DNA of 64,000 nucleotides, from NCBI GenBank assembly GCA_046290465.1, contig JBKAGP010000001.1:3632270-3696269 (forward strand). Direction: 5' to 3'. The notes under the pieces were generated by a model. The model did not search any database and was not told the DNA's origin. It saw only the letters and a program-made list of their open reading frames with translations. A program made the position numbers and the translations under genes. Numbering within the stretch: position 1 is the first letter of the stretch; the number at the start of each line of letters is the position of its first letter. Of this stretch, positions 2-30,540 are shown piece after piece. This stretch comes from Planctomycetota bacterium. GTDB lineage: Bacteria > Planctomycetota > UBA1135 > UBA2386.

Positions 2-694
2 GCGGCCGACGCGACCCCGACGGCGCTGGTGCTGAAGGCGTCCTCGGGCGGCGTCACCGGCACCGCGCGCGTGCGCGTCGTGCCGAGCGCGCCCTACACC
101 GACGACCTCGAGGACGTCGCGCTGCAGCCGCACCCGAAGGAGGATGGCGTGAACTTCGCGTTCCCGCGGGCGCACTGGATCAGCGCCAGGCTCAAGTGGG
201 AGGTGCGCGAACGCGACGGCAACAAGGTGCTCGCGCGCACGCTCGACCAGCCGCTGTTCCAGCGCACGATCTCGATGATCGGCGCGCCCGACATGGCCAA
301 CTACACCATGCAGGTCGACGTGATGACCGACGGCAACCGCCGCATCATGTCGACGCCGGGAATGGTCAACCAGCGCTACCTGATCCTGCTCAAGGGCAAC
401 CACCAGGCGCTCGAGATCACCTCCAACGAGGAGCTGCTGAAGGAGCGCGTCAAGTTCCGCTGGAAGCCCAAGGTCTGGTACCGGATGAAGAGCCGGGTCG
501 ACGTCGCGCCCGACGGCAGCGGCGTCGTGCGCGCCAAGGCCTGGCAACGCGACGAGCCCGAGCCGGACGGCTGGCTGCTGGAGGTCGAGGTGCCGCGCGC
601 CAATCGCAGCGGCTCCCCCGGCATCTACGGCTTCACCCCCCAGAGCCGCTTCCGCTGCTACGTCGACAACATCGTGGTGACCCCCAATGACTGA
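2..694 (+). CDS. hypothetical protein, C-terminal fragment (gene begins upstream of the window); possible jelly-roll/DUF1080-like domain
   Basis: Frame is open from nt 2 with no upstream stop and ends TGA 692-694. The stop overlaps the ATG of the next gene. Domain guess rests on weak motif resemblance only. Confidence 0.55.
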   Translation, partial: AADATPTALVLKASSGGVTGTARVRVVPSAPYTDDLEDVALQPHPKEDGVNFAFPRAHWISARLKWEVRERDGNKVLARTLDQPLFQRTISMIGAPDMANYTMQVDVMTDGNRRIMSTPGMVNQRYLILLKGNHQALEITSNEELLKERVKFRWKPKVWYRMKSRVDVAPDGSGVVRAKAWQRDEPEPDGWLLEVEVPRANRSGSPGIYGFTPQSRFRCYVDNIVVTPND

Positions 695-2252
695 TCTGAC
701 CCTGCGTGGCGTCGCGGCGCTGCTGATCGCCCCCGCCCTCCTCTCCTCGCTCGCGTCGGCCCAGGACTGGCCGATGTGGGGCCGCAACGCGACCCGCAAC
801 ATGGTCGCCGACGTCAAGGGACTGCCGCTCGACATCGTGCCCGGCGAGTTCGCCGACGACAGCGAGGACATCGACATCACGACGTCCAAGAACGTCAAGT
901 GGATCGCCAAGCTCGGCTCGCAGAGCTACGGCAACCCGACCGTCGCCGACGGCCGCGTCTACGTCGGCACCAACAACGACGTGCCGCGCGACGACCGCTT
1001 CCAGGGCGACCGCAGCTGCGTCTACTGCCTCGACGAGAAGACCGGCGAGCTGATCTGGCAGCTCAACGTTCCCAAGCTCGGCACCGGCAAGGTCAGCGAC
1101 TGGGAGTTCCTCGGCATCTGCAGTTCGCCCTGCGTCGACGGCGATCGCGTCTACCTGGTGACCAACCGCTGCGAGGTCATGTGCGTCGACGTCAACGGCT
1201 TCAAGGACGGCAACCAGGGCTTCCAGGACGAGGCCAAGTACTACGCCGACAACGGCAAGCCACCGGTCAAGGTCAACGAGAAGACCGACGCCGACATCAT
1301 CTGGAAGATGAACATGATCGACGAGTGCGGCGTGTTCCCGCACAACATCACCAGCTGCTCGGTGATGGTCGTTGGCGACCAGATCTGGACCTCGACGTCC
1401 AACGGCGTCGACTACGGCCACGTCGAGACGCCGGCCCCGAACGCGCCGTCGCTGATCGTCGTCGACAAGAAGACCGGCAAGCTGATCGGCGAGGAGGCCT
1501 CGGGCCTCAGCCAGAACATCTTCCACAGCAACTGGTCGTCGCCCGCCTACCTGAAGGCCGATGACACCGAGCTGGTGATCTTCGGCGGCCCGGACGGCGT
1601 GCTCTACGCGTTCGATCCGAAGCCGGTGAAGGACGAGGACGGCTTCCTGGTGCTGAAGGAGGCGTGGAAGTACGACTGCAACCCGAAGGCCTACCGCGTC
1701 AAGGAGGACGGTTCGCCGCGCAAGTACGCGACCGCCAAGGGACCGAGCGAGGTGCTGGCGACGCCGGTCGTCTACGACGGCCACGCCTACGCCCTGATCG
1801 GCCAGGACCCGGAGCACGGCGAAGGTGTCGGCAACCTCGTCTGCCTCGACCGCAACGGCAAGCAGGTCTGGTCGTTCGGCGAGATCCACCGCTCGATCTC
1901 GACGCTGTCGATCACCGACGGCCTGGTGTTCGCCGCCGACTACTCGGGCTACCTCTACTGCATCGACGCCAAGACCGGCGAGAAGTGCTGGCAGTACGAC
2001 ACCAGCGCGCACATCTGGGGCTCGACGCTGGTCGCCGACGGCCGCGTCTACGTCGGCATCGAGGACGGCTTCCTGGTCAGCGCGCCGGCGACGCGCGCGT
2101 TCGACAAGAAGAACGTCAAGGAGATCGACTTCGCGGTCCCGATCTACAGCTCGCCGATCGCGGCGAACGGCGTGCTCTACATCGCGACCCACACCCACCT
2201 GTTCGCCATCGCCAAGGGCGCCGGCGCGGCCGGGGACGACGGCGGCAAGTGA
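687..2252 (+). CDS. PQQ-like beta-propeller repeat protein (BamB-like family), secreted
   Basis: Signal peptide MTDLTLRGVAALLIAPALL..AQD followed by W-P-M-W-G-R-N motif. Repeated blades of the form G.VY.G..DG.LY..D..TGE..W. Confidence 0.8.
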   Translation: MTDLTLRGVAALLIAPALLSSLASAQDWPMWGRNATRNMVADVKGLPLDIVPGEFADDSEDIDITTSKNVKWIAKLGSQSYGNPTVADGRVYVGTNNDVPRDDRFQGDRSCVYCLDEKTGELIWQLNVPKLGTGKVSDWEFLGICSSPCVDGDRVYLVTNRCEVMCVDVNGFKDGNQGFQDEAKYYADNGKPPVKVNEKTDADIIWKMNMIDECGVFPHNITSCSVMVVGDQIWTSTSNGVDYGHVETPAPNAPSLIVVDKKTGKLIGEEASGLSQNIFHSNWSSPAYLKADDTELVIFGGPDGVLYAFDPKPVKDEDGFLVLKEAWKYDCNPKAYRVKEDGSPRKYATAKGPSEVLATPVVYDGHAYALIGQDPEHGEGVGNLVCLDRNGKQVWSFGEIHRSISTLSITDGLVFAADYSGYLYCIDAKTGEKCWQYDTSAHIWGSTLVADGRVYVGIEDGFLVSAPATRAFDKKNVKEIDFAVPIYSSPIAANGVLYIATHTHLFAIAKGAGAAGDDGGK

Positions 2253-4041: not shown

Positions 4042-5090
<1,049 letters not shown>

Positions 5091-5094
<4 letters not shown>

Positions 5095-6530: not shown

Positions 6531-7673
6531 ATGCAAGCGCGCACGTTCGAGCTGCCGACGAAGGTCGTGCTCGGCGCGGGCGCGCTGGGCGAGGTGCCGA
6601 CGCTGGTCGGCGACCGCGTGTTCGTGGTCACCGACCCGGGCATCGTCGCGGCCGGCCACTGCGAACGTCTCGAACGGCTGCTGGCCGACGCCGGCATCGA
6701 GGTCCACCGCTACCAGGACGTGCAGCCGAATCCGGACGAGCACGCGGTCGCGGCGTGCCTCGCCGCGTTCGAGCGGGCGGGTGACGGGATCGAGTGGATC
6801 GTCGCGCTCGGTGGCGGCAGCGCCATCGACGTCGCCAAGGGCTGCGCGATGCTCGCCTGCGGCGGCGGCCGCATGGCCGACTACCTCGGCCGCGCCCGCA
6901 TCGACGTGACCTCCCCGCGCCTGATCGCGATCCCGACCACCGCAGGCACCGGCAGCGAGACGCAGTCGTTCGCGCTGATCGGCAACCGCGACACCGGCCA
7001 GAAGATGGCGTGCGGCGGCAGCGCGCCGTTCGCGACCGTGCTCGACCCCGAGCTGACCGTGAGCATGCCAGCGCCGGTGACCGCGTGCACCGGCCTCGAC
7101 ACGCTGGCCCACGCGGTCGAAGCCGCGGTCAGCCGCCGCAGTACGCCGTGGTCGGCGACGTTCGCGCGCGAGGCGTTCCGGCTGGTCGAACGCCACTTCG
7201 AACGCGTGCTCGGCCAGCCCGACGACCTCGACGCGCGCGCTGCGATGCTGCACGCGTCGGCGCTGGCCGGCATCGCGATCGAGAACGGCATGCTCGGCGC
7301 CGCGCACTCGATGGCCAATCCGCTGACCCGGCGCTTCGACACCGCCCACGGCCAGGCGGTCGGCCAGGCGCTGCCGGCGGTCGTCGCGTACAACGCCGGC
7401 GACCCGTCCGCGCGCATCGGCTACGCCGACCTCGCGCGCGGGTCCGCCCTGGTCACCAACGATGCAGACGACGGCGTCGCCGTCGACGCGCTGCTGCGCC
7501 GGCTGCGCACGCTGGTCGAACGCGCCGGCTTCGGCCCGCACATTCCGGGCGTGCCGTCGGCCGCCGCCGACGAGCTCGCTGCCGAAGCCGCCACCCAATG
7601 GACCGCGCAGTTCAACCCGCGCGACGTCGACGTCGCCGCGTTCGCCGGGCTCTACCGGGAGGTGCTCGCGTGA
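6531..7673 (+). CDS. iron-containing alcohol dehydrogenase (Fe-ADH family)
   Basis: GGGSAIDVAKG glycine motif and metal-binding His cluster (HAVEAAV.., HSMANPL). ATG lies immediately after the TAG of the upstream gene. Confidence 0.85.
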   Translation: MQARTFELPTKVVLGAGALGEVPTLVGDRVFVVTDPGIVAAGHCERLERLLADAGIEVHRYQDVQPNPDEHAVAACLAAFERAGDGIEWIVALGGGSAIDVAKGCAMLACGGGRMADYLGRARIDVTSPRLIAIPTTAGTGSETQSFALIGNRDTGQKMACGGSAPFATVLDPELTVSMPAPVTACTGLDTLAHAVEAAVSRRSTPWSATFAREAFRLVERHFERVLGQPDDLDARAAMLHASALAGIAIENGMLGAAHSMANPLTRRFDTAHGQAVGQALPAVVAYNAGDPSARIGYADLARGSALVTNDADDGVAVDALLRRLRTLVERAGFGPHIPGVPSAAADELAAEAATQWTAQFNPRDVDVAAFAGLYREVLA

Positions 7674-9703
7674 GGATCCTGCCGTTCGTCACCGTGCTGG
7701 TGCTCGCCGGCACCGCGCTGGTCGCCCAGCGCATGCGGCTCGACGCCTCGGGTGCGTTCTTCACCAGCAACCCGGCCAGCACCGCCGAAGAGCGACCGCT
7801 GGTGACGTTCGATGCCGGCGCCATCACGCCGTCGATGCTCGCCGATTTCGGCGGCGCGCGGACCGGGCCGCGCATCCTCGAGAACCTCGCGTTCGCGATG
7901 GCCCTGGCGCGCGAATGCGAGGCCCGCGGGCTCGCCCGCAGCGCCCCGACCCTGGCCCGCTCCGAGGTCGCGCAGCAGACCGTCGGCGACCAGCCGTTCG
8001 ATCCGGAGACCCGTGCCCGCCTCGCGACCGAGGCCCTGCGCGACCTGCGCATGGTCGCGCTGATCGGCGAACAGCGCGCCAGGGACGAGGACGCGCTGCG
8101 CGAGCTGTTCGAGCACCGATACGGCAAGGGCGGCGTGCGCGTGCGGGTCCGCCACGTGCTCAGCACCGACCGGATGTCGGCGCCGCAGACGGCCGGCGAG
8201 CGAGCCGCGGCGCTGCGCGCCACGCTGCAGACCGGCGCGACCTTCGACGACCTGCTGGCGAAGTCGCACGACCGCGTCACCCGCCGGCTGCTGCGCGATC
8301 CGCAGCGCCGCGCCGAGGCCGGCCTGCTGCCCAACTACAACTACCATCGCTACGGCGAGGCGTTCGCCCGAGCGGTGCGCGCGCTCGAGGTCGGCGAGGT
8401 CTCGCAACCGGTCTCGTCGTCGGTCGGCGTGCACCTGATCGAACTGCTCGACCGCACCACGACGCAGCTCGCAGACGTGCGCACCGAGCTGGTCCGACAG
8501 CTCGCCGGCGGCAAGGCGCGCAGCGCCGAGATCCTGCAGCTGCGCCAGCGCCTGCTCGCCAAGTACGGCTACCAGGCGCCTGCCGCCGTCGCCCGCAAGC
8601 GCACCCCCGTCGCGGACCTCGGTCCGCCGCCGTCGACCGAGTGGCCGCACTATCGCGGCAACCCGCAGCTGCACGGTGTCTCGGCGGCACGACTCGGCGA
8701 CCAGCCGACGCTCGCGTGGCGGTTCGACACCGCCGGCGACATCCTGTCGTCGCCGGTGATCGCCAACGGCCTGGTCTACATCGGTTCGACCGACAACTTC
8801 GTCTATGCGATCGACCTGAAGACCGGCGAGCAGCGCTGGAAGTTCGAGACCAAGGACATGGTCGAGGCGCCGCCGCTGGTCGTCGACGGCCGCGTGTTCG
8901 TCGGTTCGTCGGACTTCTTCTTCTACGCGCTCGACGCCGCCGGCGGCGGGCTGCTGTGGAAGTACGAGACCCAGGACCGGATCCTCGGCGGCGCCAACTG
9001 GTTCCGCAGCCAGAACGGCAAGACGCGCGTGCTGGTCGGCAGCTACGACGCCAACGTCTACTGCTTCGACGTGCACGGCGGCGATCCGCTGTGGACCTAC
9101 GCGACCGACAACTACGTCAACGGCTCGCCGGCGATCGCCGGCCGCGAGACGCTGTTCGGCGGCTGCGACGCCGCGCTGCACCTGGTCGACCTCGAGAGCG
9201 GCGAACGCGTCGCCAAGGTCGAGCTCGGTGAGGGCTGCCAGGTCGCCGGCTCGGTCGCGCTGCTCGGCGACCGCGCCTACTTCGGCCACTACGGCAACGA
9301 GTTCCTGCGCGTCAACCTCGACGACGGCAAGGCCGAGTGGCGCTACGCGAGCAAGCGGCAGGGCTTCTGCTCGTCGCCGGCGGTCGGCGAGAAGTACGTC
9401 GTGTTCGGCGGCCGCGATCGCCACCTGCACTGCGCGCTGCGCGCCGACGGCACCCCGCAGTGGCAGTTCCGCACCAGGCGCAAGGTTGACGCGTCGCCGG
9501 TGATCTGCGGCGACAAGGTCGTGTTCGGTTCGGGCGACGGCCGCCTCTACGTGCTGCGGCTCGCGACCGGCGAGAAGGTCTGGAGCTACGACATCGGCAA
9601 GCCGATCTACTCGTCGCCGGCGGTCGTCGACGACATGATCGTGGTCGGCGCCGGCGACCAGCGCGTCTACGCGTTCCGCGCTCCCGCAGGAGGCGGCAGG
9701 TAG
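7670..9703 (+). CDS. fusion protein: N-terminal PpiC/parvulin-type peptidyl-prolyl isomerase domain plus C-terminal PQQ-like beta-propeller
   Basis: GTG 7670 overlaps the upstream stop (GTGA) and is preceded by a hydrophobic N-terminus (VRILPFVTVLVLAG). Parvulin-like block VRVRHVLS..TFDDLLAKSHD..GEVSQPVSSSVGVHLIEL. WPHYRGNPQLHG plus blades follow from about residue 330. Confidence 0.7.
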   Translation: MRILPFVTVLVLAGTALVAQRMRLDASGAFFTSNPASTAEERPLVTFDAGAITPSMLADFGGARTGPRILENLAFAMALARECEARGLARSAPTLARSEVAQQTVGDQPFDPETRARLATEALRDLRMVALIGEQRARDEDALRELFEHRYGKGGVRVRVRHVLSTDRMSAPQTAGERAAALRATLQTGATFDDLLAKSHDRVTRRLLRDPQRRAEAGLLPNYNYHRYGEAFARAVRALEVGEVSQPVSSSVGVHLIELLDRTTTQLADVRTELVRQLAGGKARSAEILQLRQRLLAKYGYQAPAAVARKRTPVADLGPPPSTEWPHYRGNPQLHGVSAARLGDQPTLAWRFDTAGDILSSPVIANGLVYIGSTDNFVYAIDLKTGEQRWKFETKDMVEAPPLVVDGRVFVGSSDFFFYALDAAGGGLLWKYETQDRILGGANWFRSQNGKTRVLVGSYDANVYCFDVHGGDPLWTYATDNYVNGSPAIAGRETLFGGCDAALHLVDLESGERVAKVELGEGCQVAGSVALLGDRAYFGHYGNEFLRVNLDDGKAEWRYASKRQGFCSSPAVGEKYVVFGGRDRHLHCALRADGTPQWQFRTRRKVDASPVICGDKVVFGSGDGRLYVLRLATGEKVWSYDIGKPIYSSPAVVDDMIVVGAGDQRVYAFRAPAGGGR

Positions 9704-11053: not shown

Positions 11054-11578
11054 ATGCAGACCTGGATCCTGTTCGCGCTCCTCACCGTCGCCTCGTGGGG
11101 CATCTACGGCGTGCTGCTGCACAGCGGCCAGGTCGCGATGAGCGACCCGCAGAACGGCCGCTACAAGGCGTTCTTCTGGGTCGGCATCGCCTACTTCCTG
11201 ATCGCGGTGCTGGCGCCCGCCGGCATGCTGCTGGCGGCGAAGGCCTCGTGGTCGATGCCGTCCAAGGCGATCTGGCTGTCGCTGTTCGCCGGGGTCGTCG
11301 GCGCCGTCGGCGCGTTCGGCGTGCTGCTCGCGTTCGGCGCCAAGGGCCACCCGGCCGCGGTGATGTCGATCATCTTCGCCGGCGCACCGATCGTGAACGC
11401 GTTCGTCGCGATGTCGCTGCACCCACCCAAGGGCGGCTGGGGCAGCCTCGACTGGCGCTTCCTGCTCGGCATCGCCCTGGCCGCGACCGGCGGGCTGCTG
11501 GTCAGCCTCTACAAGCCCGCGCCCGGCGGCGCCAAGCCGGCCGGCCAGCCACCGAGCCAGCAGAACGCGCCGAAATGA
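11054..11578 (+). CDS. small integral membrane protein (4 TM), unknown function
   Basis: 174 aa. In-frame ATG inside the long spurious ORF 10052..11578. Four hydrophobic helices. Its stop overlaps the ATG of the ABC ATPase. Confidence 0.5.
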   Translation: MQTWILFALLTVASWGIYGVLLHSGQVAMSDPQNGRYKAFFWVGIAYFLIAVLAPAGMLLAAKASWSMPSKAIWLSLFAGVVGAVGAFGVLLAFGAKGHPAAVMSIIFAGAPIVNAFVAMSLHPPKGGWGSLDWRFLLGIALAATGGLLVSLYKPAPGGAKPAGQPPSQQNAPK

Positions 11579-20256: not shown

Positions 20257-21492
20257 CTACCGTTTCGTCTCGATACGGTACAGGTGCTTCCGCGTGCGCA
20301 GCACCAGCGCGTCCCCGACCACCGCCGGCGACGCCATGAAGCCCGATTCGAGGTGGTTCTCCGCCAGCTCGCGGTATTCGTCCGCCTTCGCCAGCACGAC
20401 GGTGCGCCCCTCGCGGTCGAAGAAGTAGATCCGGTCGCCCACGCACAGCGGCGAACCCGAGTGCTCGCCGCCGAGGCGATGGCGCCACACCGGCTCGCCG
20501 GTCCGGGCGTCGAGGCAGGTCGCGTAGCCGCCGTCGTCGACCATGAAGATGCGGTCCCCGACCAGCAGCGGCGACGGCATCTTGGGCACGTTGCGCCGCC
20601 ACGTCCACGCGACCTTCTCGTCGGTCACGTCGCCGCTGCCCGCGAGCTCGACCGCGTAGAGCTGCGCGCGCATGAACCCCGTCGGGATGTAGACGCGCAC
20701 GCCGTCGGTGAGCGGTCGCGACGCCAGCGAGAAGCCCTTGTAGCGCACGCGCCACAGCTCCTTGCCGGTCTCGAGGTCGTAGGCCATCGCCGCGTGCGCG
20801 CCGGGGCTGAGCAGCACGCGGGTGCCGTCGAGCTCGGTGACGATCGGCGTGCAGTAGGCCTTGCGCAGGTCCTTCTGCATGCTGGCGAGGTCGATCGAAC
20901 GCTCGGTCTTCCAGACGGTCTCGCCGGTGCGCTTGTCGAGCGCGATGACGAACTGCACATCGCCGCCGTCGACGTGGAACGCGAGCAAGTCGTCGACCAG
21001 CACCGGGGACGAGCCCGGCCCTTCCATGTGGTCGCAGTTGATGTCGCGTCGCTGCCAGACCTCGTCGAACGTCTCGGTGTCGATGCACGCCGTGCCATAG
21101 GTGCCGAAGTGCACGTAGACGCGGCCCGGCTCGACGACCGGCGACGGCGACGCGTGGCTGTTGAGCGCGTTCTTCTTGCCGGCCTTCTCGACCTCGAACA
21201 CGACGCGCCGGTGCACGATCTCGCCGCTGTCGGCGTCGACCGCGACGACGTGCATCTTGCGGCCGCCGTCGGTCGCCGTGGTCAGCCAGATGCGCCCGTC
21301 GCAGACCACCGGTGACGACCAGCCCTCGCCGGGGATCGCGACCTTCCAGCGCACGTTCTGCTGCTCGCTCCAGGTCAGCGGCACGTCGGCCGCAGCGACC
21401 ACGCCGTCGCGCTTCGGGCCGCGGAACTCCGGCCAGACGGCCTGGGCGGCGAGCGGGGCCGCGCACGCAGCGAGAACGAGAAGGTTGCGCAT
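20257..21492 (-). CDS. PQQ-like beta-propeller repeat protein
   Basis: Signal peptide MRNLLVLAACAAPLAAQA followed by W-P-E-F-R-G-P-K-R-D-G. Divergent from the next gene across a 67-bp intergenic region. Confidence 0.8.
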   Translation of the reverse strand: MRNLLVLAACAAPLAAQAVWPEFRGPKRDGVVAAADVPLTWSEQQNVRWKVAIPGEGWSSPVVCDGRIWLTTATDGGRKMHVVAVDADSGEIVHRRVVFEVEKAGKKNALNSHASPSPVVEPGRVYVHFGTYGTACIDTETFDEVWQRRDINCDHMEGPGSSPVLVDDLLAFHVDGGDVQFVIALDKRTGETVWKTERSIDLASMQKDLRKAYCTPIVTELDGTRVLLSPGAHAAMAYDLETGKELWRVRYKGFSLASRPLTDGVRVYIPTGFMRAQLYAVELAGSGDVTDEKVAWTWRRNVPKMPSPLLVGDRIFMVDDGGYATCLDARTGEPVWRHRLGGEHSGSPLCVGDRIYFFDREGRTVVLAKADEYRELAENHLESGFMASPAVVGDALVLRTRKHLYRIETKR

Positions 21493-21559: not shown

Positions 21560-22879
21560 ATGGCCGCCACCCAGCTCCGCATCCTCTCCTTCGTGCTCGC
21601 CACCCTCGCGGCGAACGCAGCCCCCGCCCAGGCCGAATCGGAGGCCAAGGCCCCAACGAAGAACCAGGCCGCTCCGGAGACCCAGGCCGCCCGCCCGGAC
21701 GCGCCGACCGGCGTCTGGAACCAGTGGCGCGGGCCCGACCGCAACGGCCACTGTCCCGGCGACTGGTGGCCCGAGCGGCTGACCGAGCAGCGCGTCGAGC
21801 GGCTGTGGCGGGTCGAGCTCGGCCCGAGCTACTCCGGGCCGGTCGTCGACCGCGACACGGTCTACACCACCGAGACCGTCGACAAGAAGGACGAGGTCGT
21901 GACCGCCTACGACCGCCGCACCGGCAAGCGCAAGTGGCGCACGTCGTGGGCCGGCGCCATGAAGGTGCCGTTCTTCGCGGCCAAAAACGGCTCGTGGATC
22001 CGTTCGACGCCGGCGGTCGACGACGACTCGATCTACGTGGCCGGCATGCTCGACGTGCTGGTCTGCCTCGACAAGGAGACCGGCGAGGAGCGCTGGCGGG
22101 CCGACTTCACCCGGCGCTTCGACGCGCCCAAGCCCGACTTCGGCTTCGTCTGCTCGCCGCTGGTGGTCGGCGACCACGTCTACGTGCAGGCCGGCGCGAG
22201 CTTCGTCAAGGTCGACAAGAAGACCGGCGAGACCGTCTGGCGTTCGATGAAGGACGGCGGCGGCATGTTCGGCAGCGCGTTCAGCTCGCCGACGCTGGCG
22301 ACGATCGCCGGCAAGGAGCAGCTGCTGGTGCAGAGCCGCAACGAGCTGGCCGGCGTCGCCGTCGACGACGGCGAGGTGCTCTGGTCCAAGAAGATCCGCG
22401 CGTTCCGCGGCATGAACATCCTGACGCCGCAGCCCTACAAGGACTCGGTGTTCATCTCGGCCTACGGCGGCCGCGCCCACCGCTTCGACGTGTCGTCGAC
22501 CGACGGCGCGTTCGCGGCCAACGAAGCGTGGAACAACCGCGCCCAGGCCAACATGACCTCGCCGGTCGTCATCGACCACTACGCCTATCTCTACCTGCGC
22601 GCCAAGCGCTTTGCGTGCGTCGACCTCGACAGCGGCGAGGAGGTCTGGCGTTCGAGCGGCATGGCCGACGACTACTGGTCTCTGGTCGCGCAGGGCGAAC
22701 GCATGCTGGCGCTGACCGACGCCGGCGAACTGCACCTGATCCAGCACGATCCCGATGACCTGAAGATCCTCGACACGCTGCAGATCTCCGACGGCAAGAC
22801 CTGGGCACACCTGTGCGTGGACGGCGGCCAGCTGATCGTGCGCGAGCAGGACGGCCTGGCGGCGTGGTCGTGGAAGTAG
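21560..22879 (+). CDS. PQQ-like beta-propeller repeat protein
   Basis: Internal ATG of ORF 21161..22879 giving a signal peptide MAATQLRILSFVLATLAANAAPAQA. W-N-Q-W-R-G-P-D-R-N-G. Confidence 0.8.
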   Translation: MAATQLRILSFVLATLAANAAPAQAESEAKAPTKNQAAPETQAARPDAPTGVWNQWRGPDRNGHCPGDWWPERLTEQRVERLWRVELGPSYSGPVVDRDTVYTTETVDKKDEVVTAYDRRTGKRKWRTSWAGAMKVPFFAAKNGSWIRSTPAVDDDSIYVAGMLDVLVCLDKETGEERWRADFTRRFDAPKPDFGFVCSPLVVGDHVYVQAGASFVKVDKKTGETVWRSMKDGGGMFGSAFSSPTLATIAGKEQLLVQSRNELAGVAVDDGEVLWSKKIRAFRGMNILTPQPYKDSVFISAYGGRAHRFDVSSTDGAFAANEAWNNRAQANMTSPVVIDHYAYLYLRAKRFACVDLDSGEEVWRSSGMADDYWSLVAQGERMLALTDAGELHLIQHDPDDLKILDTLQISDGKTWAHLCVDGGQLIVREQDGLAAWSWK

Positions 22880-23001
22880 CCCGGCCCCACTAGGAGCGCG
22901 TCCATGTAGTGGACGCGCTGCCAACCGTGATCGCGGAAGCGGAGTGTACGCGTGCGAACGGAGCTTTGCCCGCCAGCGATCCGGCCACCCCTGGATCCCA
23001 C

Positions 23002-23078
23002 AAACACCGCATACCGAACCCGGTTCATCCTGCGCCGTTTCACGGCGCAGGATGAACCGGGTTCGGTATGCGGTGTTT
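23002..23078. repeat. REP-like palindromic element, copy A: perfect 36-bp inverted repeat with 5-nt loop
   Basis: aaacaccgcataccgaacccggttcatcctgcgccg-tttca-cggcgcaggatgaaccgggttcggtatgcggtgttt. Intergenic between the beta-propeller gene and the mqnA-like gene. Confidence 0.85.
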
Positions 23079-23175
23079 GCGCCGAACGGGTCTCCGCGGC
23101 GTTGATCGTGCCCTGCGGGGAAACGGGCTTCGCCCGCTAGGCATTCGTCCGCACCGGCTGCATGCTGCTGCCGAC

Positions 23176-23916
23176 GTGAGCATTCGAATCGGCGGAGTCC
23201 CCTATGGTGTCGGCGCGCCCCTGCTGGGCGGCCTCGAGGACGCACCCGGCGTCGAACTGGTGCGAGAGCCGCCGACGGCGATGATCCCGGCGCTGCGCGC
23301 GGGCACGCTGGACGCGGCGCTGCTGTCGTCGGTCGAGGCGATCCGGCACCCCGGCTACACGATCGCCGGCGGACTCGGCATCGCGTGCAAGCGGGAGATC
23401 CGTTCGGTGCGTGCCTTCCGTCGCCGCGGCCGCAAGATCCGGCGCGTCGGCTGCGACCGCAGCTCGGCGACGACCGTGTCGCTGCTGCGCCTGTTGCTGC
23501 AGCACGTGCACCACGCAGAAGTCGACGGCACCCCCGAGTTCGAGACGATCGAGCCGACCCGCGCACCGGACGAACTGCCGCACGACCTGGTGATGCTGAT
23601 CGGCGATCCGGGGCTCGAGGCCGACGCCGGCGACCGCGAGGTCTGGGACCTCGGCACCGAGTGGGTTCGCTGGACCGGCCTGCCGTTCGTGTTCGCCCTG
23701 TGGGTGCTGCGTCCCGGCGTCGACCACGACGCCGTGCTGCCGGTGCTGCAGCGCGCGCGCGAAGTCGGCCGGCAGCGCGGCGCCGTCGACGGCACCGAAG
23801 GTGCCGCCCACTACGAACTCGACGACCAGGACCTGGTCGGCCTGCGCCGCTTCTGGACCGAATGCCGCGCCCTCGGCATCGGCACCGAACCCGACCCCGA
23901 GTTCGTGACCCCCTGA
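23176..23916 (+). CDS. mqnA: MqnA/MqnD-family protein (futalosine-pathway menaquinone biosynthesis, periplasmic-binding-protein fold)
   Basis: GTG start. IRIGGVPYG..GVELV.E.P..M..ALRAGTLDAALLSSVEAIRHPGYTI..GLGIACKREIRSV matches the conserved MqnA layout. No other mqn genes are in the window. Confidence 0.55.
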   Translation: MSIRIGGVPYGVGAPLLGGLEDAPGVELVREPPTAMIPALRAGTLDAALLSSVEAIRHPGYTIAGGLGIACKREIRSVRAFRRRGRKIRRVGCDRSSATTVSLLRLLLQHVHHAEVDGTPEFETIEPTRAPDELPHDLVMLIGDPGLEADAGDREVWDLGTEWVRWTGLPFVFALWVLRPGVDHDAVLPVLQRAREVGRQRGAVDGTEGAAHYELDDQDLVGLRRFWTECRALGIGTEPDPEFVTP

Positions 23917-23952: not shown

Positions 23953-24042
23953 AAACACCGCATACCGAACCCGGTTCAGCCTGCGCCGTGAAACGGCGCA
24001 GGCTGAACCGGGTTCGGTATGCGGTGTCGGTATGCGGTGTCC
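23953..24042. repeat. REP-like palindromic element, copy B (carries T-to-G / A-to-C compensatory pair relative to copy A, plus a 13-nt tandem duplication cggtatgcggtgt)
   Basis: Left arm 23953-23988, loop tgaaa, right arm 23994-24027. The left arm is identical to copy A except ttcaTcc to ttcaGcc, and the change is mirrored in the right arm (gAtgaa to gCtgaa). Confidence 0.85.
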
Positions 24043-24081: not shown

Positions 24082-25359
24082 ATGATCTTGCTGCTGGCGG
24101 CCCTGCTTCCGACGATTGCGCCACAAGGGGACGACTGGCCGCAGTGGCGCGGACCGACGCGCGACGGTGTCTGGCGCGAACAGGGCATCGTCGAGCAGCT
24201 GCCCGAACGGCTCTCGCCCCGTTGGCAGGTCGAGATCGGCGCGGGCTACACCGGGCCGACCGTCGCCGACGGCCGCGTCTACGTCATGGATCGGCTCGAC
24301 GAACCCGACGAGGTCGAACGGGTGCACTGCTTTGCCTGGCAGACCGGCGAACCGATCTGGTCGCACAGCTACGCGTGCTCGTATGCAGGGGTCTCCTACA
24401 CGGCGGGGCCGCGCTGCGCCGTGCAGATCTTCGACGGCCTCGCCTACAGCCTCGGCGCCAAGGGCCACCTGCACTGCTTCGACGCGAAGACCGGCGAGGT
24501 CGTGTGGCAGCAGGACCTCGACGCCGCATACACGATCGACCTGCCGATCTGGGGCATCGCCGCGGCACCGGTCGTCGAAGGCGACCTGCTGATCGTGCCC
24601 GCGTGCGGCAAGGACGCCTACCTCGTCGCGTTCGATCGCCGCACCGGCAAACCCCGCTGGGCCGCGCACTCGGACCGCGGCAACTACTCGGCGCCCATCG
24701 TGATCGAACAGGCCGGCAAGCGCCTGCTGGTCTGCTGGTCCGGCGATCGTGTGCTCGCCGTGCATCCGGACACCGGCAAGCTCGCCTGGGAATACCCGCT
24801 GAAGTCGCGCAACATGCCGCTCGGCGTCGCGTCGCCGCTCCTGCACGAGGACTGCCTGTTCCTGACCGGCTTCTACGACGGCTGCGCGCTGCTGCGCCTC
24901 GACCAGGAGAAGCTCGCCGTCGAGGAACTATGGCGCCTGCGCGGCCCGAGCGAGCGCCGCACGCGCGGCCTGCACAGCACGATCTCGACGCCGATCGCGC
25001 TCGGCGGGCACGTCTACGGCGTCGACAGCTACGGCGAACTACGCTGCCTCGCACTCGCCGACGGCAGCCGCGTCTGGGAGGACCGGACCGCCGTGCCGCG
25101 AAGCCGCTGGGCGACGATCCACTTCGTGCGCAACGGCGAACGCATCTGGATGTTCAACGAACGCGGCGAACTGCTGATCGCCCGCCTGTCGCCCGACGGC
25201 TTCGAGGAGATCGACCGCGCAGCGTTGATCTCGCCGACCCGCGGCCAGCTCAACCGCCGCGGTGGAGTCTGCTGGTCCCATCCCGCGTTCGCCTACGGCC
25301 ACGTGTTCGCACGCAACGACGAACGGCTCGTCTGCGCCGACCTGCGACGGGCGAAGTGA
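24082..25359 (+). CDS. PQQ-like beta-propeller repeat protein
   Basis: Start MILLLAALLPTIAPQGDDWPQWRGPTRDG. The ORF-track start at 24019 lies inside repeat copy B and is rejected. Confidence 0.8.
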   Translation: MILLLAALLPTIAPQGDDWPQWRGPTRDGVWREQGIVEQLPERLSPRWQVEIGAGYTGPTVADGRVYVMDRLDEPDEVERVHCFAWQTGEPIWSHSYACSYAGVSYTAGPRCAVQIFDGLAYSLGAKGHLHCFDAKTGEVVWQQDLDAAYTIDLPIWGIAAAPVVEGDLLIVPACGKDAYLVAFDRRTGKPRWAAHSDRGNYSAPIVIEQAGKRLLVCWSGDRVLAVHPDTGKLAWEYPLKSRNMPLGVASPLLHEDCLFLTGFYDGCALLRLDQEKLAVEELWRLRGPSERRTRGLHSTISTPIALGGHVYGVDSYGELRCLALADGSRVWEDRTAVPRSRWATIHFVRNGERIWMFNERGELLIARLSPDGFEEIDRAALISPTRGQLNRRGGVCWSHPAFAYGHVFARNDERLVCADLRRAK

Positions 25360-25408: not shown

Positions 25409-25468
25409 AAACACCGCATACCGAACCCGGTTCAGCCTGCGCCGTGAACCGGGTTCGGTATGCGGTGT
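25409..25468. repeat. REP-like palindromic element, copy C (shortened version: the central 10 nt become the loop)
   Basis: aaacaccgcataccgaacccggttca-gcctgcgccg-tgaaccgggttcggtatgcggtgt. Intergenic between two beta-propeller genes. Confidence 0.8.
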
Positions 25469-25556: not shown

Positions 25557-26912
25557 ATGCACACCGCGATGATCGCGTTCGCTCTCTCGTTGGCGGCGCC
25601 GGCGCTGCTTGCGCAGCAGGCGCAGGACCCGGCGGCGACCAGTTGGCCGTCCTACCACGGTGCGTTCGGCCGCGGCGTCGCCGACGGCTTCGCGACGCCG
25701 GTCGAGTGGGACGTCGAGGCGGGCACCAACATCGCCTGGTCGACCAAGATCCCGGGCCTGTCGCACTCGTCGCCGGTCGTCTGGGGTGACAAGGTATTCG
25801 TCAACACGGCGATCAAGGAAGGCGACGACGACGCGGAGCTGCGCGTTGGCCTCTACGGCGACATCAAGTCGGTCGAGGACGACTCGGAGCACGAGTTCCG
25901 GCTGCTGTGCCTCGATCGCAACAGCGGCGCGGTGCTGTGGTCCAAGCTCGTGTGGAAGGGCGTGCCGGCGATCAAGCGGCACCCGAAGGGCTCGCACGCA
26001 GCGTCGACGCCCGCGACCGACGGCGAACGCGTGGCGGTGTTCCACGGCACCGAAGGCCTGCACGTGTTCGACATGCAGGGCGAACTGCTGTGGAAGAAGG
26101 AGTTCGGGGTGCTCGACGCCGGCTTCTTCCGGATGCCGTCGGCGCAGTGGGGCTGGGCCAGTTCGCCGGTGCTGCACGGCGGCCGCGTCTACGTCCAGGC
26201 CGACCACCAGAAGGACAGCTTCGTCGCCGCGTTCGACGCCAAGACCGGCGAGCAGCTCTGGCGCACCGCGCGCGACGAGGTGCCGACCTGGTCGACGCCG
26301 ACCGTGCACATCAGCGAAGGCCGCCGCCAGCTGGTGCTCAACGGCTGGAAGCACATGGGTGGCTACGACCTCGACACCGGCAAGGAACTCTGGTGGCTCG
26401 AAGGCACCGGCGACATCCCGGTGCCGACGCCGGTCGCAGCACATGGACGGATCTTCTTGACCAACGCCCACGGCGGACCTGCGCGCATCCTGGCGATCGC
26501 CGAGGACGCCGAGGGCGAACTGTCGGTCGACGCCGACGGGGAGAACGTCGTCTGGGCAAACCGTCGCTACGGCGCCTACATGCAGTCGCCGTTCGTCTAC
26601 GGCGACGAACTCTACGTGTGCCGGGACAACGGCGTGATCACCTGCTGGGACGCCAAGACCGGCACCCAGCACTACCGCCAGCGGCTGACCGCCGGCGTCG
26701 GCTACACGGCGTCGGGCGTCGCCGCCGACGGCAAGCTCTACTACCCGAGCGAGGAGGGCGTCGTGCACGTCGTCAAGGCCGGCAAGAGCTACCAACTGCT
26801 GGCGACCAACGACCTCGGCGAGACCTGCATGGCGTCGCCCGCGATCTCGCAGGGCATGCTGCTGTTCCGCACCCGCACGCAGCTGATCGCGGTGGCCGCG
26901 CCGAAGAAGTAG
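25557..26912 (+). CDS. PQQ-like beta-propeller repeat protein
   Basis: Signal peptide plus W-P-S-Y-H-G variant. Blades of the form GRVYV..D...AFDAKTGEQLW. Confidence 0.8.
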   Translation: MHTAMIAFALSLAAPALLAQQAQDPAATSWPSYHGAFGRGVADGFATPVEWDVEAGTNIAWSTKIPGLSHSSPVVWGDKVFVNTAIKEGDDDAELRVGLYGDIKSVEDDSEHEFRLLCLDRNSGAVLWSKLVWKGVPAIKRHPKGSHAASTPATDGERVAVFHGTEGLHVFDMQGELLWKKEFGVLDAGFFRMPSAQWGWASSPVLHGGRVYVQADHQKDSFVAAFDAKTGEQLWRTARDEVPTWSTPTVHISEGRRQLVLNGWKHMGGYDLDTGKELWWLEGTGDIPVPTPVAAHGRIFLTNAHGGPARILAIAEDAEGELSVDADGENVVWANRRYGAYMQSPFVYGDELYVCRDNGVITCWDAKTGTQHYRQRLTAGVGYTASGVAADGKLYYPSEEGVVHVVKAGKSYQLLATNDLGETCMASPAISQGMLLFRTRTQLIAVAAPKK

Positions 26913-26967: not shown

Positions 26968-28338
26968 ATGTCGCCCGTGCTGCCCGCCCTGTTCGTCGCC
27001 GCGATGTCCTGCGGCCTGCCGCTCGCCCAGCAAGGCCGGCAGGCGACTCCGGAGAGCCGGCCAGGGCTCGAGGCGCAGCACCAGCGCGGCGACTGGAGCA
27101 GCTGGCGCGGCCCGCTCGGCACCGGCGTGGCGCCGCAGGCCGATCCGCCGATCCAGTGGAGCGAACGGCAGAACGTGCGCTTCAAGGTCGCGGTGCCCGG
27201 CTTCGGCTACGGCACACCGATCGTGCACGGCAACCAGGTCTTCGTGACCGCGGCGGAGCCGTTCGGGCCCGAACTCGCGCCGGTGCCCGACGACGCACCC
27301 GGTGCGCACGACAACGCGCGCGTCACGCAGAAGCACCGCTTCCTGGCGATGGCGTTCGACGCACGCACCGGCGAGCAGCTGTGGCGAACGGACCTGCACC
27401 AACAGCTGCCGCACGCGGGCTTCCACCAGAGCAGCGCGCTCGCAGCGGCGTCGGCGGTGACCGATGGCGAACACGTGTTCGCGTTCTTCGGCTCGTACGG
27501 CCTCTACTGCCTGACGGTCGACGGCGATCTGGTCTGGCAGACCGACCTCGGCGACATGGACATCAAGCACGGCCACGGCGAAGGCGTCACGCCGGTGCTG
27601 CACGGCGACACGCTGGTCGTCAACTGGGACCACGAGGGGCCGTCGTTCGTCGTCGCGTTCGACAAGGCGACCGGCGAGGAGCGCTGGCGCAAGCAGCGCG
27701 ACGAGGTGACCTCGTGGTCGACGCCGATCACCGTCGAGCACGACGGCCGCGTGCAGGTGATCGTCAGCGCGACCGGCGCCGTGCGCGCCTACGACCTCGC
27801 GACCGGCGACGTGATCTGGTCGTGCCGCGGCCTGTCGCACAACGTCGTCGCGTCGCCGGTCGCCGCGGACGGCTTCGTCTACGCGGGCAGCAGCTACGAG
27901 AAGCGGCGCATGTTCGCCGTCGAGCTGCAAGGCGCCAAGGGCGACATCACCAACACCGACAGCGTCGTCTGGCGTCGGCAGCGCGGCACCCCCTACGTGC
28001 CCTCGCCGCTGCTCTACGGTGAGTGGCTCTACTTCCTCAACCACTACCAGGGCTTCCTGGCGCGCGTGCATGCGAGGACCGGACGCGAAGCCCACCGCCC
28101 GATCCGCCTGCCCGGCATGCGCGCGATCTACGCCTCGCCGGTCGGCGCCGCCAACCGGATCTACCTGACCGATCGCGAAGGTGTCACGCTCGTGCTCGCG
28201 CATCCTGCGAACGGCGCCGAGCCCGAGGTGCTGGCGCGCAACGTGCTCGACGACAGCTTCAGCGCGTCGATGGCGGTCGTCGGCGACGCGATCTACCTGC
28301 GCGGCCGGCAGCACCTGTACTGCCTCGCCAGGCCGTAG
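26968..28338 (+). CDS. PQQ-like beta-propeller repeat protein
   Basis: W-S-S-W-R-G-P-L-G-T-G. Closest paralog of the C-terminal half of the gene at 15705..17561 (shared VNWDHEG..FVVA.D..TGE.KW.. blocks). Confidence 0.8.
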   Translation: MSPVLPALFVAAMSCGLPLAQQGRQATPESRPGLEAQHQRGDWSSWRGPLGTGVAPQADPPIQWSERQNVRFKVAVPGFGYGTPIVHGNQVFVTAAEPFGPELAPVPDDAPGAHDNARVTQKHRFLAMAFDARTGEQLWRTDLHQQLPHAGFHQSSALAAASAVTDGEHVFAFFGSYGLYCLTVDGDLVWQTDLGDMDIKHGHGEGVTPVLHGDTLVVNWDHEGPSFVVAFDKATGEERWRKQRDEVTSWSTPITVEHDGRVQVIVSATGAVRAYDLATGDVIWSCRGLSHNVVASPVAADGFVYAGSSYEKRRMFAVELQGAKGDITNTDSVVWRRQRGTPYVPSPLLYGEWLYFLNHYQGFLARVHARTGREAHRPIRLPGMRAIYASPVGAANRIYLTDREGVTLVLAHPANGAEPEVLARNVLDDSFSASMAVVGDAIYLRGRQHLYCLARP

Positions 28339-28355
28339 CGGCGACCGCTACTTCT
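28331..28355 (+). terminator. hairpin GTAGCGG-CGA-CCGCTAC followed by a T-rich tract between convergent genes
   Basis: 7-bp stem immediately after the TAG of the upstream gene, followed by ttcttctc. Confidence 0.4.
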
Positions 28356-30540
28356 TCTCGACACGCTCGAACATGAGCTTCTGGTCCTTGCCGATGCGCA
28401 GCGCAATCGTCTTGGGGCCGGAGGCCGGCGTGATGATCTCGAGGTCGACCGGAATGCCGGAGATCGGGTAGGCGCCGTCCTTCTTCTCGTCGACACAGAC
28501 GCGGTTGCGATCGCCGTCCGGGCCGAACCAGAGCTCGCCGTCCGAGACCGACATCGCGACCTCACGCTCGCCGAGCGGGGTGTTCTTCATGGTCGGCTTG
28601 TAGCGGCCGAGGATCGACGCGAACTCCTTCTTCAGCGCCTCGGTATCGCGCGCGATCTCGGCCGGCGTGCGCATCAGCCGCCGGATGGCGCTCGGCTGCG
28701 CAAACGCGTCGCCGACCTCCACCCACTCGGCCCCCTGCAAGGCCATCACGTGCTCCTGGCCGTCCTCGGCGCGGTAGCGCGTGATGCTCTGCGGTAGCGT
28801 CAGCCCGGAGAGGCGCTGCGAGCCGTGGTAGACCAGCGTCGACCGCCGCGCGCCCTCGGTGCCGCGGAGGCGGCCCGAGTCGACGGCGAAGTAGAACGAA
28901 CGGCTGTCCCCCGCGCTCGACGCGGTGACCTTCCAGCACTCGGTCTCCGCGAACCGCACCGGGCCGGAGGTCTTCGCCCCCTCGGGGCACGTCGGCGCAA
29001 ACAGCTGCGACAGCGGGAACAGCTGCTGCAGCTCGAACCGCTCGTCGCCGGAGACCATGCGCGCGCCCTGCGGTTCGATCGCCCAGCACGAGTCCTGGTC
29101 GCACACGTAGTCGAGGCCTCCCTCGTCGAGATGCTGCACCCACAGGTCCGGCGCGACCAGCGTCATCGTCATCGGCTCCGGCGGCAGCCCGCGCAGCGGG
29201 ATCGCCCAGGTGCCGGTCAGCCGCAGCGCCTTGCCCTCGACCGCGAAGGCGTCGGCGGCAACGGCCGCTGCGTGCTTGTCGAACAGGTCCTTCGCGGCGG
29301 GCGCATCCGCCGCGGCGTCCCCGCCAGCCCCCTTGGCGACGCCACCGCCCCGGTGGTCGAGGCACGCCATGTCGCCAAGGCTGTTGCGCACGTAGATCAG
29401 CCCCCCGACGAACACCGGCATCGTCCAGTAGACGCCGCCCTCGAGCACCTTCTTGCGCGACAGCTCGCGGAACTCGTCCGGGTCCGCCTCGGCGACGATC
29501 AGTTCGCCGTCCGAGTTGAGCACCAGCAGGCGACCGCCTGCCATCGACAGCGAACCGAGACCCAGGCCGCGCACGCGCCACTTCGACTTGCCGTTGCTGT
29601 CGAGGCAGCGGAGCATCGACTCGTCGAAGCCGTAGAGGTGGTCCTCGTGCAGCACGCACGCGGTCACCTTGTTGCGCATGCGCTTGTTCGACCACAGCCG
29701 TTCGGGCTCCTTGTCGTCGCCGAGCCGGATCATCGCCGCGCCCTTGTTGTAGGCCGTCGACAAGAACACGCGATCCTCGCCGACCGCGATCGGCACCGCG
29801 CAGTGCACGGCGCTGCCCATCAGCGGCCACGGGTATTCGTAGAGCACGCGGCCGTCGTCGCGCGCGTGCACGAAGAACGTCGTCGCGCGCATCGCGGCCA
29901 GCGCCGGCGTGCCGCCCACCTCGAGCATCGCGAGGTTGGAGTAGGACGCGTCGCCGAGGTCGTTGGTCTTCCAGATGACGGCGCCGTCCTGCTTGCGCAC
30001 GGCAGCGACGAGGCCGCCGAACTGCAGGTAGATGCGGTCGTTCTCGAGCAGCGGCGACGCCGAGAAGCCGTGGAAGGTCCTCTCGACCTGCCACTCCTTC
30101 GCATAGTCGCGGGTCCAGGCGACCTTGCCGTTGGCGAGGTCGAGCACGTGCAACACGCCGAAGCGGTTGAGGCAGTAGACGCGGCCGTCGTGGATCGTCG
30201 GCGTCGTCAGCGTGCCGCCGCCGTGGTAGCGCGGTTCGTCGGACGAGTCGTATTCGTACTTCCAGAGCCGCTTGCCCGTCTTGGCGTCGAGGCAGAGCAC
30301 GCGATCGACGCCCTCCTTCTCGTGGTAGCCCATCGTGACGAGCTGGCCGCCCACGATCGACGGGCACGAGTAGCCGAGCCCGACGTTGGCGCGCCACAGC
30401 GGCTCGTCCGCGCCGACCGGCGACCAGTCGCGCGCGGCGACGATTGCGGTGCGGTCCGGGCCGCGGTATTCCGGCCAATCGGGACCCTGGGGAGCGGACA
30501 GAACGAGGGCACTGAAGAGGGTGAGCATGGGCCCGCACAT
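28348..30540 (-). CDS. PQQ-like beta-propeller repeat protein fused to a C-terminal domain of about 340 aa with unknown function
   Basis: W-P-E-Y-R-G-P-D-R-T near the N-terminus. Start is ambiguous (ATG 30540 MCGPMLTL.. or ATG 30528 MLTLFSAL..). After about residue 400 the sequence has no propeller motifs. Confidence 0.7.
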   Translation of the reverse strand: MCGPMLTLFSALVLSAPQGPDWPEYRGPDRTAIVAARDWSPVGADEPLWRANVGLGYSCPSIVGGQLVTMGYHEKEGVDRVLCLDAKTGKRLWKYEYDSSDEPRYHGGGTLTTPTIHDGRVYCLNRFGVLHVLDLANGKVAWTRDYAKEWQVERTFHGFSASPLLENDRIYLQFGGLVAAVRKQDGAVIWKTNDLGDASYSNLAMLEVGGTPALAAMRATTFFVHARDDGRVLYEYPWPLMGSAVHCAVPIAVGEDRVFLSTAYNKGAAMIRLGDDKEPERLWSNKRMRNKVTACVLHEDHLYGFDESMLRCLDSNGKSKWRVRGLGLGSLSMAGGRLLVLNSDGELIVAEADPDEFRELSRKKVLEGGVYWTMPVFVGGLIYVRNSLGDMACLDHRGGGVAKGAGGDAAADAPAAKDLFDKHAAAVAADAFAVEGKALRLTGTWAIPLRGLPPEPMTMTLVAPDLWVQHLDEGGLDYVCDQDSCWAIEPQGARMVSGDERFELQQLFPLSQLFAPTCPEGAKTSGPVRFAETECWKVTASSAGDSRSFYFAVDSGRLRGTEGARRSTLVYHGSQRLSGLTLPQSITRYRAEDGQEHVMALQGAEWVEVGDAFAQPSAIRRLMRTPAEIARDTEALKKEFASILGRYKPTMKNTPLGEREVAMSVSDGELWFGPDGDRNRVCVDEKKDGAYPISGIPVDLEIITPASGPKTIALRIGKDQKLMFERVEKK

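Follow-up and report, generated by a model that had tools for sequence, protein, structure and literature searches.

A dense cluster of eleven PQQ-like beta-propeller genes in a Planctomycetota bacterium includes a conserved ABC transporter locus

A dense cluster of propeller genes

We analysed a 64,000-nucleotide stretch from the genome of an uncultured, marine member of the Planctomycetota (assembly GCA_046290465.1, contig JBKAGP010000001.1, positions 3,632,270 to 3,696,269 of the forward strand; hereafter the window), whose left part carries eleven genes for pyrroloquinoline quinone (PQQ)-like beta-propeller proteins, named P1 to P11 (Table 1). Five of these genes are arranged around those for an ATP-binding cassette (ABC) transporter and a GT4-family glycosyltransferase, and this arrangement recurs in related bacteria. 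The G + C (GC) content of the window is ~70%, and open reading frames (ORFs) were chosen by third-position GC content and protein-like translation.

In a Pfam search with whole proteins, exactly 11 genes at 687-30528 matched the PF13360 (PQQ_2) propeller family, and none did so in the remaining 34 kb. All 11 scored 61-145 bits, compared with a gathering threshold of 27.6 bits. A hidden Markov model built from the 11 genes and run against every ORF of the 64-kb window recovered the same 11, with none outside 687-30579. Assuming ~28 such genes per genome, as in Tuwongella immobilis (PMC8567305), ~0.1 would be expected per 30 kb, so the clustering is far beyond chance. An earlier reading of the letters without database searches (the original prediction) had proposed eleven PQQ-like propeller paralogs in 30 kb, and this count was borne out: every ORF was present and above the PF13360 threshold. 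The cluster may continue leftward, as the window begins just upstream of P1. A genomic island was rejected on the uniform GC content across the cluster (0.67-0.74), together with the synteny of the locus across relatives.

A hydrophobic, signal-peptide-like segment opens all 11 proteins (judged by eye), in agreement with their proposed secretion. By inspection of the 11 paralogs, the N-termini close with A-Q or A-x-A type sites and no conserved lipobox is present; the sole lipobox-like sequence, LAAC at residue 10 of P6, is not kept in P6 orthologs. Most likely, the 11 proteins are Sec-exported with predicted type I-like signal peptides. The N-terminal motif W-x-x-[WFYL]-[RHG]-[GR] was found in every protein, with an invariant Trp. 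The shared W-P motif that had been described was thus recovered as a type, but it is degenerate in P1 (WPMWGRN) and P9 (WPSYHGA).

A conserved ABC transporter locus

Within the cluster, five propeller genes lie in a locus of ~14 kb with the order P2-GT4-ABC-FtsX-P3, convergent with P6-P5-P4. The same order and orientation were found in ten contigs of relatives (contigs are denoted L plus a number: L009, L012, L014, L015, L021, L032, L033, L034, L035 and L036). These are all the contigs long enough to show the order; their GC content ranges from 0.55 to 0.72, and L009 is without P5. Some may come from the same species, so that independent lineages are fewer than contigs, but the spread of GC content and the grouping of identities at ~80%, ~72% and ~60-65% still indicate that several lineages share the synteny. 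The locus belongs to a marine Planctomycetota clade, and the other six propellers lie in variable flanks.

Close packing accompanies this order. Stop and start codons overlap between the Fe-type alcohol dehydrogenase gene and P2 (GTGA, with a GTG start), between ABC and FtsX (ATGA), and between P5 and P4 (TGATG), while the GT4 gene starts 4 nt past the end of P2. These overlaps and short gaps fit two putative operons, one running from the alcohol dehydrogenase gene (FeADH) to P3 (FeADH-P2-GT4-ABC-FtsX-P3) and the other being P6-P5-P4. P2 orthologs adjoin GT4 in L009, L032, L033, L034 and L036, and the FtsX permease adjoins P3 in all contigs of sufficient length.

The best NCBIfam matches of the ATPase were LolD, YbbA, MacB and FtsE, all below the equivalog cutoffs. 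The permease gave weak ADOP/DevC matches and a weak MacB_PCD match, and no specific equivalog cutoff was reached. From these matches, the pair is predicted to be a type VII (MacB/FtsX-type) transporter that scores below the cutoffs of every subtype.

The flanks are less uniform. P7 orthologs were confined to the nearest relatives (L008, L009, L022, L032 and L040), and in L013 the orthologs of P8 and P6 are neighbours. Relatives differ in the genes that lie to the right of P6 and in the position of mqnA. P1, which lies outside the conserved locus, starts on the stop codon of an uncharacterised upstream ORF and is the most divergent paralog, being 20-24% identical to the other ten. Two of the relatives carry unexpected labels: L008 (CAZTQF010000097.1) is labelled 'Brocadiaceae' and L022 (JBERSB010000250.1) 'Luminiphilus sp.', although both contain the Planctomycetota locus, with proteins 80-88% identical and a GC content of 71-72%, and were probably binned wrongly.

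Table 1. Features of the propeller cluster (coordinates within the window; export, transporter type and operons as predicted)
Feature	Position	Strand	Description
P1 (p687)	687..2252	+	predicted exported PQQ_2 propeller, 521 aa, long loop inserts; PF13360 79.8 bits
P2 (p7670)	7670..9703	+	predicted signal peptide, ~135-aa region without family match, PpiC domain aa ~157-269, propeller from aa ~325
GT4-family glycosyltransferase	9708..11012	+	Glycos_transf_1 107 bits; synteny
ABC transporter ATPase, LolD/YbbA/MacB/FtsE type (predicted type VII)	11575..12282	+	ABC_tran 120 bits
Duplicated FtsX/MacB-type permease, ~1100 aa	12279..15581	+	two FtsX stretches and MacB_PCD match
P3 (p15705)	15705..17561	+	predicted signal peptide, putative calycin-like barrel aa ~21-165, propeller from aa ~185
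P4 (p17565)	17565..18791	-	predicted exported propeller, last in putative P6-P5-P4 operon; PQQ_2 99.7 bits
P5 (p18791)	18791..20221	-	predicted exported 8-bladed propeller, EF-hand pair inserted at aa ~285-335
P6 (p20257)	20257..21492	-	predicted exported propeller, first in putative P6-P5-P4 operon; PQQ_2 109 bits
P7 (p21560)	21560..22879	+	predicted exported propeller, divergent from P6; PQQ_2 144.9 bits
REP-like perfect palindrome, copy 1	23001..23079	.	38-nt arms; dG -80.6 kcal/mol, z -15.5
MqnA/VitK2_biosynth-family gene	23068..23916	+	PF02621 105 bits; in variable flank
REP-like perfect palindrome, copy 2	23955..24027	.	35-nt arms; dG -82.3 kcal/mol
P8 (p24082)	24082..25359	+	propeller between REP-like elements; PQQ_2 117 bits
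REP-like palindrome, copy 3	25411..25465	.	shorter, without inner part; found by repeat search
P9 (p25557)	25557..26912	+	predicted exported propeller; PQQ_2 101 bits
P10 (p26968)	26968..28338	+	predicted exported propeller, widespread conserved family, His-rich invariant top face
P11 (p28348)	28348..30528	-	propeller aa 1-~385 and ~340-aa C-terminal region; PQQ_2 77.8 bits

Propeller fold and family assignment

Structure models cover one propeller and one accessory domain, and blades were counted from the model secondary structure; a regular-expression count of the blade motif found only 2-4 per protein and is unreliable. The fold is a compact eight-bladed propeller closed by an N-terminal strand, with YxaL, Rv3035 and BamB as the closest folds. 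The propeller parts of the 11 paralogs span 356-497 aa. Databases already list such proteins under the name PQQ-binding-like beta-propeller repeat protein.

We considered whether the paralogs are genuine PQQ-dependent quinoprotein dehydrogenases. PQQ alcohol and methanol dehydrogenases, like tetrathionate hydrolase, share the blade repeat motif and the eight-blade topology with the window paralogs, but they are far larger and decorated, the dehydrogenases forming their PQQ pocket in a propeller of ~560-700 aa, and their cofactor or metal ligands and Cys-Cys are absent here. None of the 11 paralogs reached the dehydrogenase cutoffs (TIGR03075, at most 71 bits compared with 480; TIGR03074, at most 29 compared with 833), and only ~357 of the 560-670 dehydrogenase residues could be aligned. 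The vicinal Cys-Cys (CC dipeptide) occurs in 0 of the 11, and the paralogs share no conserved set of metal or PQQ ligands; the residues conserved throughout are structural only (W, G, P and D). A quinoprotein identity is hardly credible on these grounds. The original prediction had guessed that PQQ-binding residues would probably not be conserved, which agrees with this result, and an ordinary PQQ-dehydrogenase active site was found in none of the paralogs.

The BamB equivalog cutoffs TIGR03300 (285 bits) and NF008351 (423 bits) were not reached either, the best score being 177 bits (P2) and the others 37-74. BamB (YfgL) of Escherichia coli is a lipoprotein of the beta-barrel assembly machinery (BAM), whereas the window paralogs have type I-like signal peptides and no conserved lipobox. 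They also differ in being eleven distinct proteins with extra domains, with no bam genes nearby and scores far below the cutoff. Because the curated cutoffs are not reached, lipobox and Cys-Cys are lacking and the propellers are compact, the 11 paralogs are exported, compact propellers of the BamB/YxaL/Rv3035 class, neither quinoproteins nor BamB orthologs.

SurA and BamB belong to the same outer-membrane protein assembly pathway in E. coli. An alternative is that one of the eleven, most plausibly P2, is the organism's functional counterpart of BamB, working in the BAM complex and fused to a SurA/PrsA-like parvulin, with the other propellers functionally unrelated. P2 does give the top TIGR03300 score of the 11, but at 177 bits this lies under the equivalog cutoff of 285. 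P2 alone exceeds the Beta-prop_ACSF4 threshold, and its parvulin domain has SurA and PrsA matches, but it has no lipobox and its conserved neighbours are the GT4 and ABC transporter genes, not bam genes. BamB-like proteins occur in multiple copies in P. limnophila and are non-essential there (PMC10632474), which also speaks against this alternative. We consider it improbable.

Age and constraint of the family

Pairwise identity among the 11 paralogs is 19-47% (median 24%), so they are neither near-identical nor recently duplicated, and an assembly duplication artefact is ruled out. Exact or 98%-identical contigs were found in metagenomes only, and the nearest genomes are Planctomycetota metagenome-assembled genomes (MAGs). 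Planctomycetota MAGs and marine metagenome contigs contain a separate ortholog, 57-85% identical, for each of the window paralogs. In a neighbour-joining tree, all 11 fell into separate ortholog clades on long stems, and the only sister clades were P4/P5 and P3/P10. The duplications are therefore older than the split of lineages spanning 55-72% GC. P6 orthologs extend further, at 44-85% identity, and include Verrucomicrobiota and Vicinamibacterales MAGs.

Divergence of the propeller orthologs is about that of the adjacent ABC, FtsX and GT4 genes on the same contigs. The ratio of nonsynonymous to synonymous substitution rates (dN/dS) ranged from 0.05 to 0.24 in comparison with the 98% relative L006, estimates that rest on few substitutions; it was 0.05 for P9, 0.22 for P10, 0.12 for P11 and 0.037 for the C-terminal domain of P11. 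With top and bottom faces assigned from strand order, conservation among the orthologs of five paralogs was 0.81-0.94 in top-face loops, 0.75-0.85 in strands and 0.66-0.75 in bottom loops. The separate ortholog clades, low dN/dS and conserved top loops show that the family is old and constrained and that its surfaces are not hypervariable. The proposal of a rapidly diversifying family with possibly hypervariable surface loops is contradicted by these values: the loops of the top face are the most conserved part. Dense clusters of paralogs with shuffled domains can thus be ancient and strongly constrained rather than rapidly diversifying.

Repetitive extragenic palindromic (REP)-like elements between the paralogs had been suggested to mediate the duplications. 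The family consists of three copies (23001-23079, 23955-24027 and 25411-25465), which are intergenic, near-perfect palindromes directly downstream of P7, mqnA and P8, and a half-copy at 33961-33981. All four share the 21-nt core CCGCATACCGAACCCGGTTCA, for which 0 occurrences are expected by chance. The arms measure 35-38 nt around a 3-nt loop, with a hairpin dG of -80 to -82 kcal/mol. The identical Logan contig L001 also ends in one such arm, and the other repeats of the region are the coding blade motif. The true start of the mqnA-like gene is probably downstream of the palindrome 23001-23079.

The elements therefore exist at three intergenic sites, but none lies between 8 of the 11 genes. 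The three copies bracket the mqnA-like gene and P8, a segment that L008, L009 and L032 lack between their orthologs of P7 and P9. At most, they mark a variable flank with differing gene content. The high local density of the paralogs, their varied accessory domains, the palindromes themselves and the variable gene content right of P6 would suit a family made rapidly diversifying and surface-binding by recent, REP-driven local duplications. This account conflicts with the 19-47% identity and separate clades of the paralogs, with ortholog divergence equal to that of neighbouring housekeeping-type genes and with the conserved top loops; the duplications themselves predate the lineages of 55-72% GC. 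We regard it as extremely improbable.

Accessory domains and loop inserts

Four of the paralogs carry accessory domains. The PpiC rotamase fusion proposed for P2 was confirmed at aa 157-269, where Rotamase_3 (32.4 bits; threshold 22.5) and Rotamase (31.7; threshold 21.7) were both matched. The N-terminal region and linker of this protein yielded nothing usable in Pfam at E<=1.

The EF-hand pair of P5 was likewise recovered, with EF-hand_5 at 27.9 bits (threshold 25.9) and two canonical 12-residue DxDxDG loops, DANGDGALGRDE and DLDHSGGLDAGE. The insertion point is the loop joining strands B and C in blade 5, on the top face, and both EF-hand loops are kept in orthologs. The insert searched alone gave nothing usable in Pfam at E<=1.

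The N-terminal domain of P3 (~165-185 aa) is predicted to be an eight-stranded, calycin-like barrel at aa ~21-165, possibly of the antiparallel up-and-down kind seen in the ligand-binding lipocalins and avidin. A PDB sequence search with it returned no significant match. This part of the original prediction stood as to a domain of about 185 aa, whereas the (GRR)n run described as a linker interrupts blade 1 between strands B and C, a site at which P10 and P9 also have inserts. The Gly/Arg-rich loop itself (GRRGGRRGGRRGGGR; aa ~283-300, 16560-16610) keeps its composition but not its sequence in orthologs from L008 to L021, and it is conceivable that it binds polyanions.

The P3 N-domain (15765-16270, + strand) also represents a family of small Planctomycetes proteins, exported and as yet unnamed, with 61 matches and no Pfam or NCBIfam model; an NCBIfam search with the standalone relatives was empty. 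Examples are Rosistilla Poly24_36040 and EC9_36580, as well as L028 10001-10519 and L030 10001-10672, and invariant residues include W84, Y115-A-G-x-W119, G126 and G130. In L030, the standalone homolog again follows an ABC and FtsX pair. The genomic context of two standalone homologs gave no consistent functional clue.

As had been noted from its letters, the ~340-aa C-terminal domain of P11 has no recognisable motifs: it has no Pfam match, neither the domain nor its last 110 aa gave anything usable in Pfam at E<=1, and the window sequence alone matched nothing in a PDB search. A word-indexed search found 3 matches, and an exhaustive search extended these to 97 representative clusters. Many of the relatives are ~740-aa proteins composed of a propeller and this domain, and some are standalone proteins of ~250 aa; some add beta-lactamase, HEAT/F5-8C or DUF3471 domains. 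The family profile matched PDB 9tp6 ('outer membrane lipoprotein-sorting protein') over ~100 residues with a marginal E of 4.3e-4. One standalone relative had a faint DUF4412 match, and NCBIfam searches with the standalone relatives were empty. A LolA-like fold is plausible from the profile match. A membrane-coat-like reading of P11, as propeller plus alpha-solenoid, was unsupported; the family profile points, marginally, to a LolA-like domain.

The P10 family and an enzymatic alternative

P10 belongs to a widespread family with more than 7800 homologs, the top matches being 58-83% identical. Its orthologs lie in genomic contexts that gave no consistent functional clue. About 30 polar residues, six of them His, are invariant in the top-face loops of this family, compared with 2 in the bottom loops. 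The His-rich top face suggests a metal or active site.

The invariant top-face set includes H114, D115, H153, H201, H203, E205, N219-W-D-H222, R244, E246 and H359-Y-Q, and several of these residues are common to P3. The spread of the family also includes MAGs labelled Acidobacteriota.

The main rival to a binding role is catalysis: the paralogs, or some of them, would be enzymes that use a metal or no cofactor at all, each with an active site on the top face and specificity for one periplasmic or extracellular substrate, comparable to tetrathionate hydrolase and to propeller-fold hydrolases and lyases. The invariant top face of P10, with its contrast to the bottom loops, is the kind of pattern that such an enzyme would show. 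Across the 11 paralogs, however, only structural W, G, P and D are conserved and a shared catalytic set is lacking, and the likeness to tetrathionate hydrolase is confined to the level of the blade repeat. Moreover, the closest folds are undecorated scaffolds, and the fused domains are binding or chaperone modules and not catalytic ones. We consider an enzymatic role for the paralogs rather unlikely.

Comparison with known systems

The expansion of 'BamB' paralogs in Planctomycetes has already been published. T. immobilis encodes 28 of them, of 43-193 kDa, several of which were found as soluble proteins in its proteome (PMC8567305). This family is of the same phylum and shows the same expansion with variable size and architecture, but no dense clustering, conserved multi-propeller locus or association with a type VII ABC transporter was reported for it. 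Here, 11 genes lie in 30 kb, five of them in a fixed order, and the conserved locus is the main new result.

Among single propellers, Rv3035 of Mycobacterium (FecB-bound in PDB 9p3f) is the scaffold of an envelope-biogenesis machine, as BamB is, and supports a glycosyltransferase (PMC13041763). It is only 17% identical, however, and is single and essential; it pairs with a periplasmic binding protein, of which no homolog was seen in the window locus. YxaL of Bacillus, a secreted PQQ-like propeller (PDB 7eq5, PMC6483160), is Gram-positive and single-copy and lacks accessory domains.

All four characterised type VII ABC systems of E. coli (LolCDE-LolA, FtsEX-EnvC, MacAB-TolC and YbbAP-TesA) work via a dedicated periplasmic partner (PMC12646458). 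The window resembles them in its LolD/YbbA/MacB-type ATPase, in its FtsX-fold permease with a periplasmic domain and in the exported P3 encoded directly after the permease. It differs from them in that none has a propeller or calycin-barrel partner, and the window permease is a duplicated protein of ~1100 aa that reached no equivalog cutoff. In the literature searched, we found neither a dense 11-gene propeller cluster nor a five-propeller locus with a type VII ABC transporter and GT4, and no links between PQQ-like propellers and MacB/FtsX. The architectures with a blade-5 EF-hand pair, a calycin-barrel fusion or a LolA-like fusion were also not found there.

Possible roles of the propellers

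The original prediction had cast the propellers as binding modules, which fits proteins that are exported and probably non-PQQ; binding is their most plausible function. We infer a binding function, an envelope role and partner relations from fold, domain fusion and synteny. The paralogs may act in the periplasm as adaptors, scaffolds or carriers that serve envelope biogenesis or trafficking, a reading to which we give about even credence. Modules like those fused to them are characteristic of chaperones and carriers of the periplasm, and BamB and Rv3035, the two close structural relatives whose function is understood, are scaffolds. Each paralog would bind one specific periplasmic partner or ligand via its own conserved top face. 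The parvulin, the EF-hand pair, the calycin barrel and probably the LolA-like domain would then be modules of periplasmic chaperones or carriers, and the interaction of P5 would probably be Ca2+-dependent via its EF-hand pair. Judging from synteny, P3 is a probable periplasmic partner of the ABC transporter; it is the natural candidate because characterised type VII systems use a dedicated periplasmic partner and P3 is directly downstream of the permease.

Several observations weigh against this adaptor, scaffold or carrier role. In more distant genomes, P6 and P10 orthologs are singletons in unrelated contexts (for P6, in Verrucomicrobiota, Vicinamibacterales and Rubripirellula MAGs), so membership of a single complex is not obligatory for the propellers. 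Part of the synteny could be gene order inherited within one clade. The conservation of P10, high across the phylum for a scaffold, would suit an enzyme or a metal site no less well. Of the accessory modules, the EF insert of P5 is modelled with low confidence (helices 281-292, 305-314 and 325-334, with low predicted local distance difference test scores), the calycin-like barrel of P3 fits no specific family, and the LolA-like assignment of P11 rests on a marginal E of 4e-4.

A bolder version of the adaptor role is that the locus encodes an undescribed envelope machine of Planctomycetota, in which the type VII ABC mechanotransducer would drive or load a Ca2+-regulated multi-propeller assembly that moves a hydrophobic or glycosylated envelope component. 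We offer this as speculation that is unlikely to hold. If true, the locus would bring the kinds of type VII ABC partner system to five, the others being those of EnvC, LolA, MacA-TolC and TesA.

Planctomycetes contain dozens of BamB-like propellers without assigned roles, and their cell envelope has long been debated. By linking five propellers with a MacB-type ABC transporter and a glycosyltransferase, the fixed locus provides a concrete entry point to propeller partners. The practical impact is modest, as the expansion of the propeller family was already published and the function is inferential.

Other features of the window

Several further genes were seen around the cluster. The 246-nt 'gap' between P1 and a sodium:solute symporter gene contains, by eye, a small hydrophobic ORF (2253-2498, + strand; MTRKLSSGGKFAWGLVVLLAILHYDFWFWG...), whose product is likely to be a small membrane protein that goes with the symporter. 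Upstream of P2, at 4042-7673, the same strand carries an AMP-binding-like ORF (weak match), an aldehyde dehydrogenase-family gene at 5100-6530 and the Fe-type alcohol dehydrogenase gene at 6531-7673 (+).

Where the propeller cluster ends on the right, P11 is separated from a Band7 gene by a gap of 913 nt, which contains an Rfam tRNA model match (30944-31015, + strand; 56 bits, E 2e-9) that was not called by ARAGORN. A HipA-family toxin kinase gene lies at 37048-38517 (+; HipA_C 147 bits, Couple_hipA 63 bits). Further to the right, a patch at 46000-48967 has a GC content of 0.587, compared with ~0.70 elsewhere, and may be foreign or integrated DNA. It contains a 673-aa ORF (46519-48540, - strand) beside tRNA-Val(TAC) (48891-48967, - strand).

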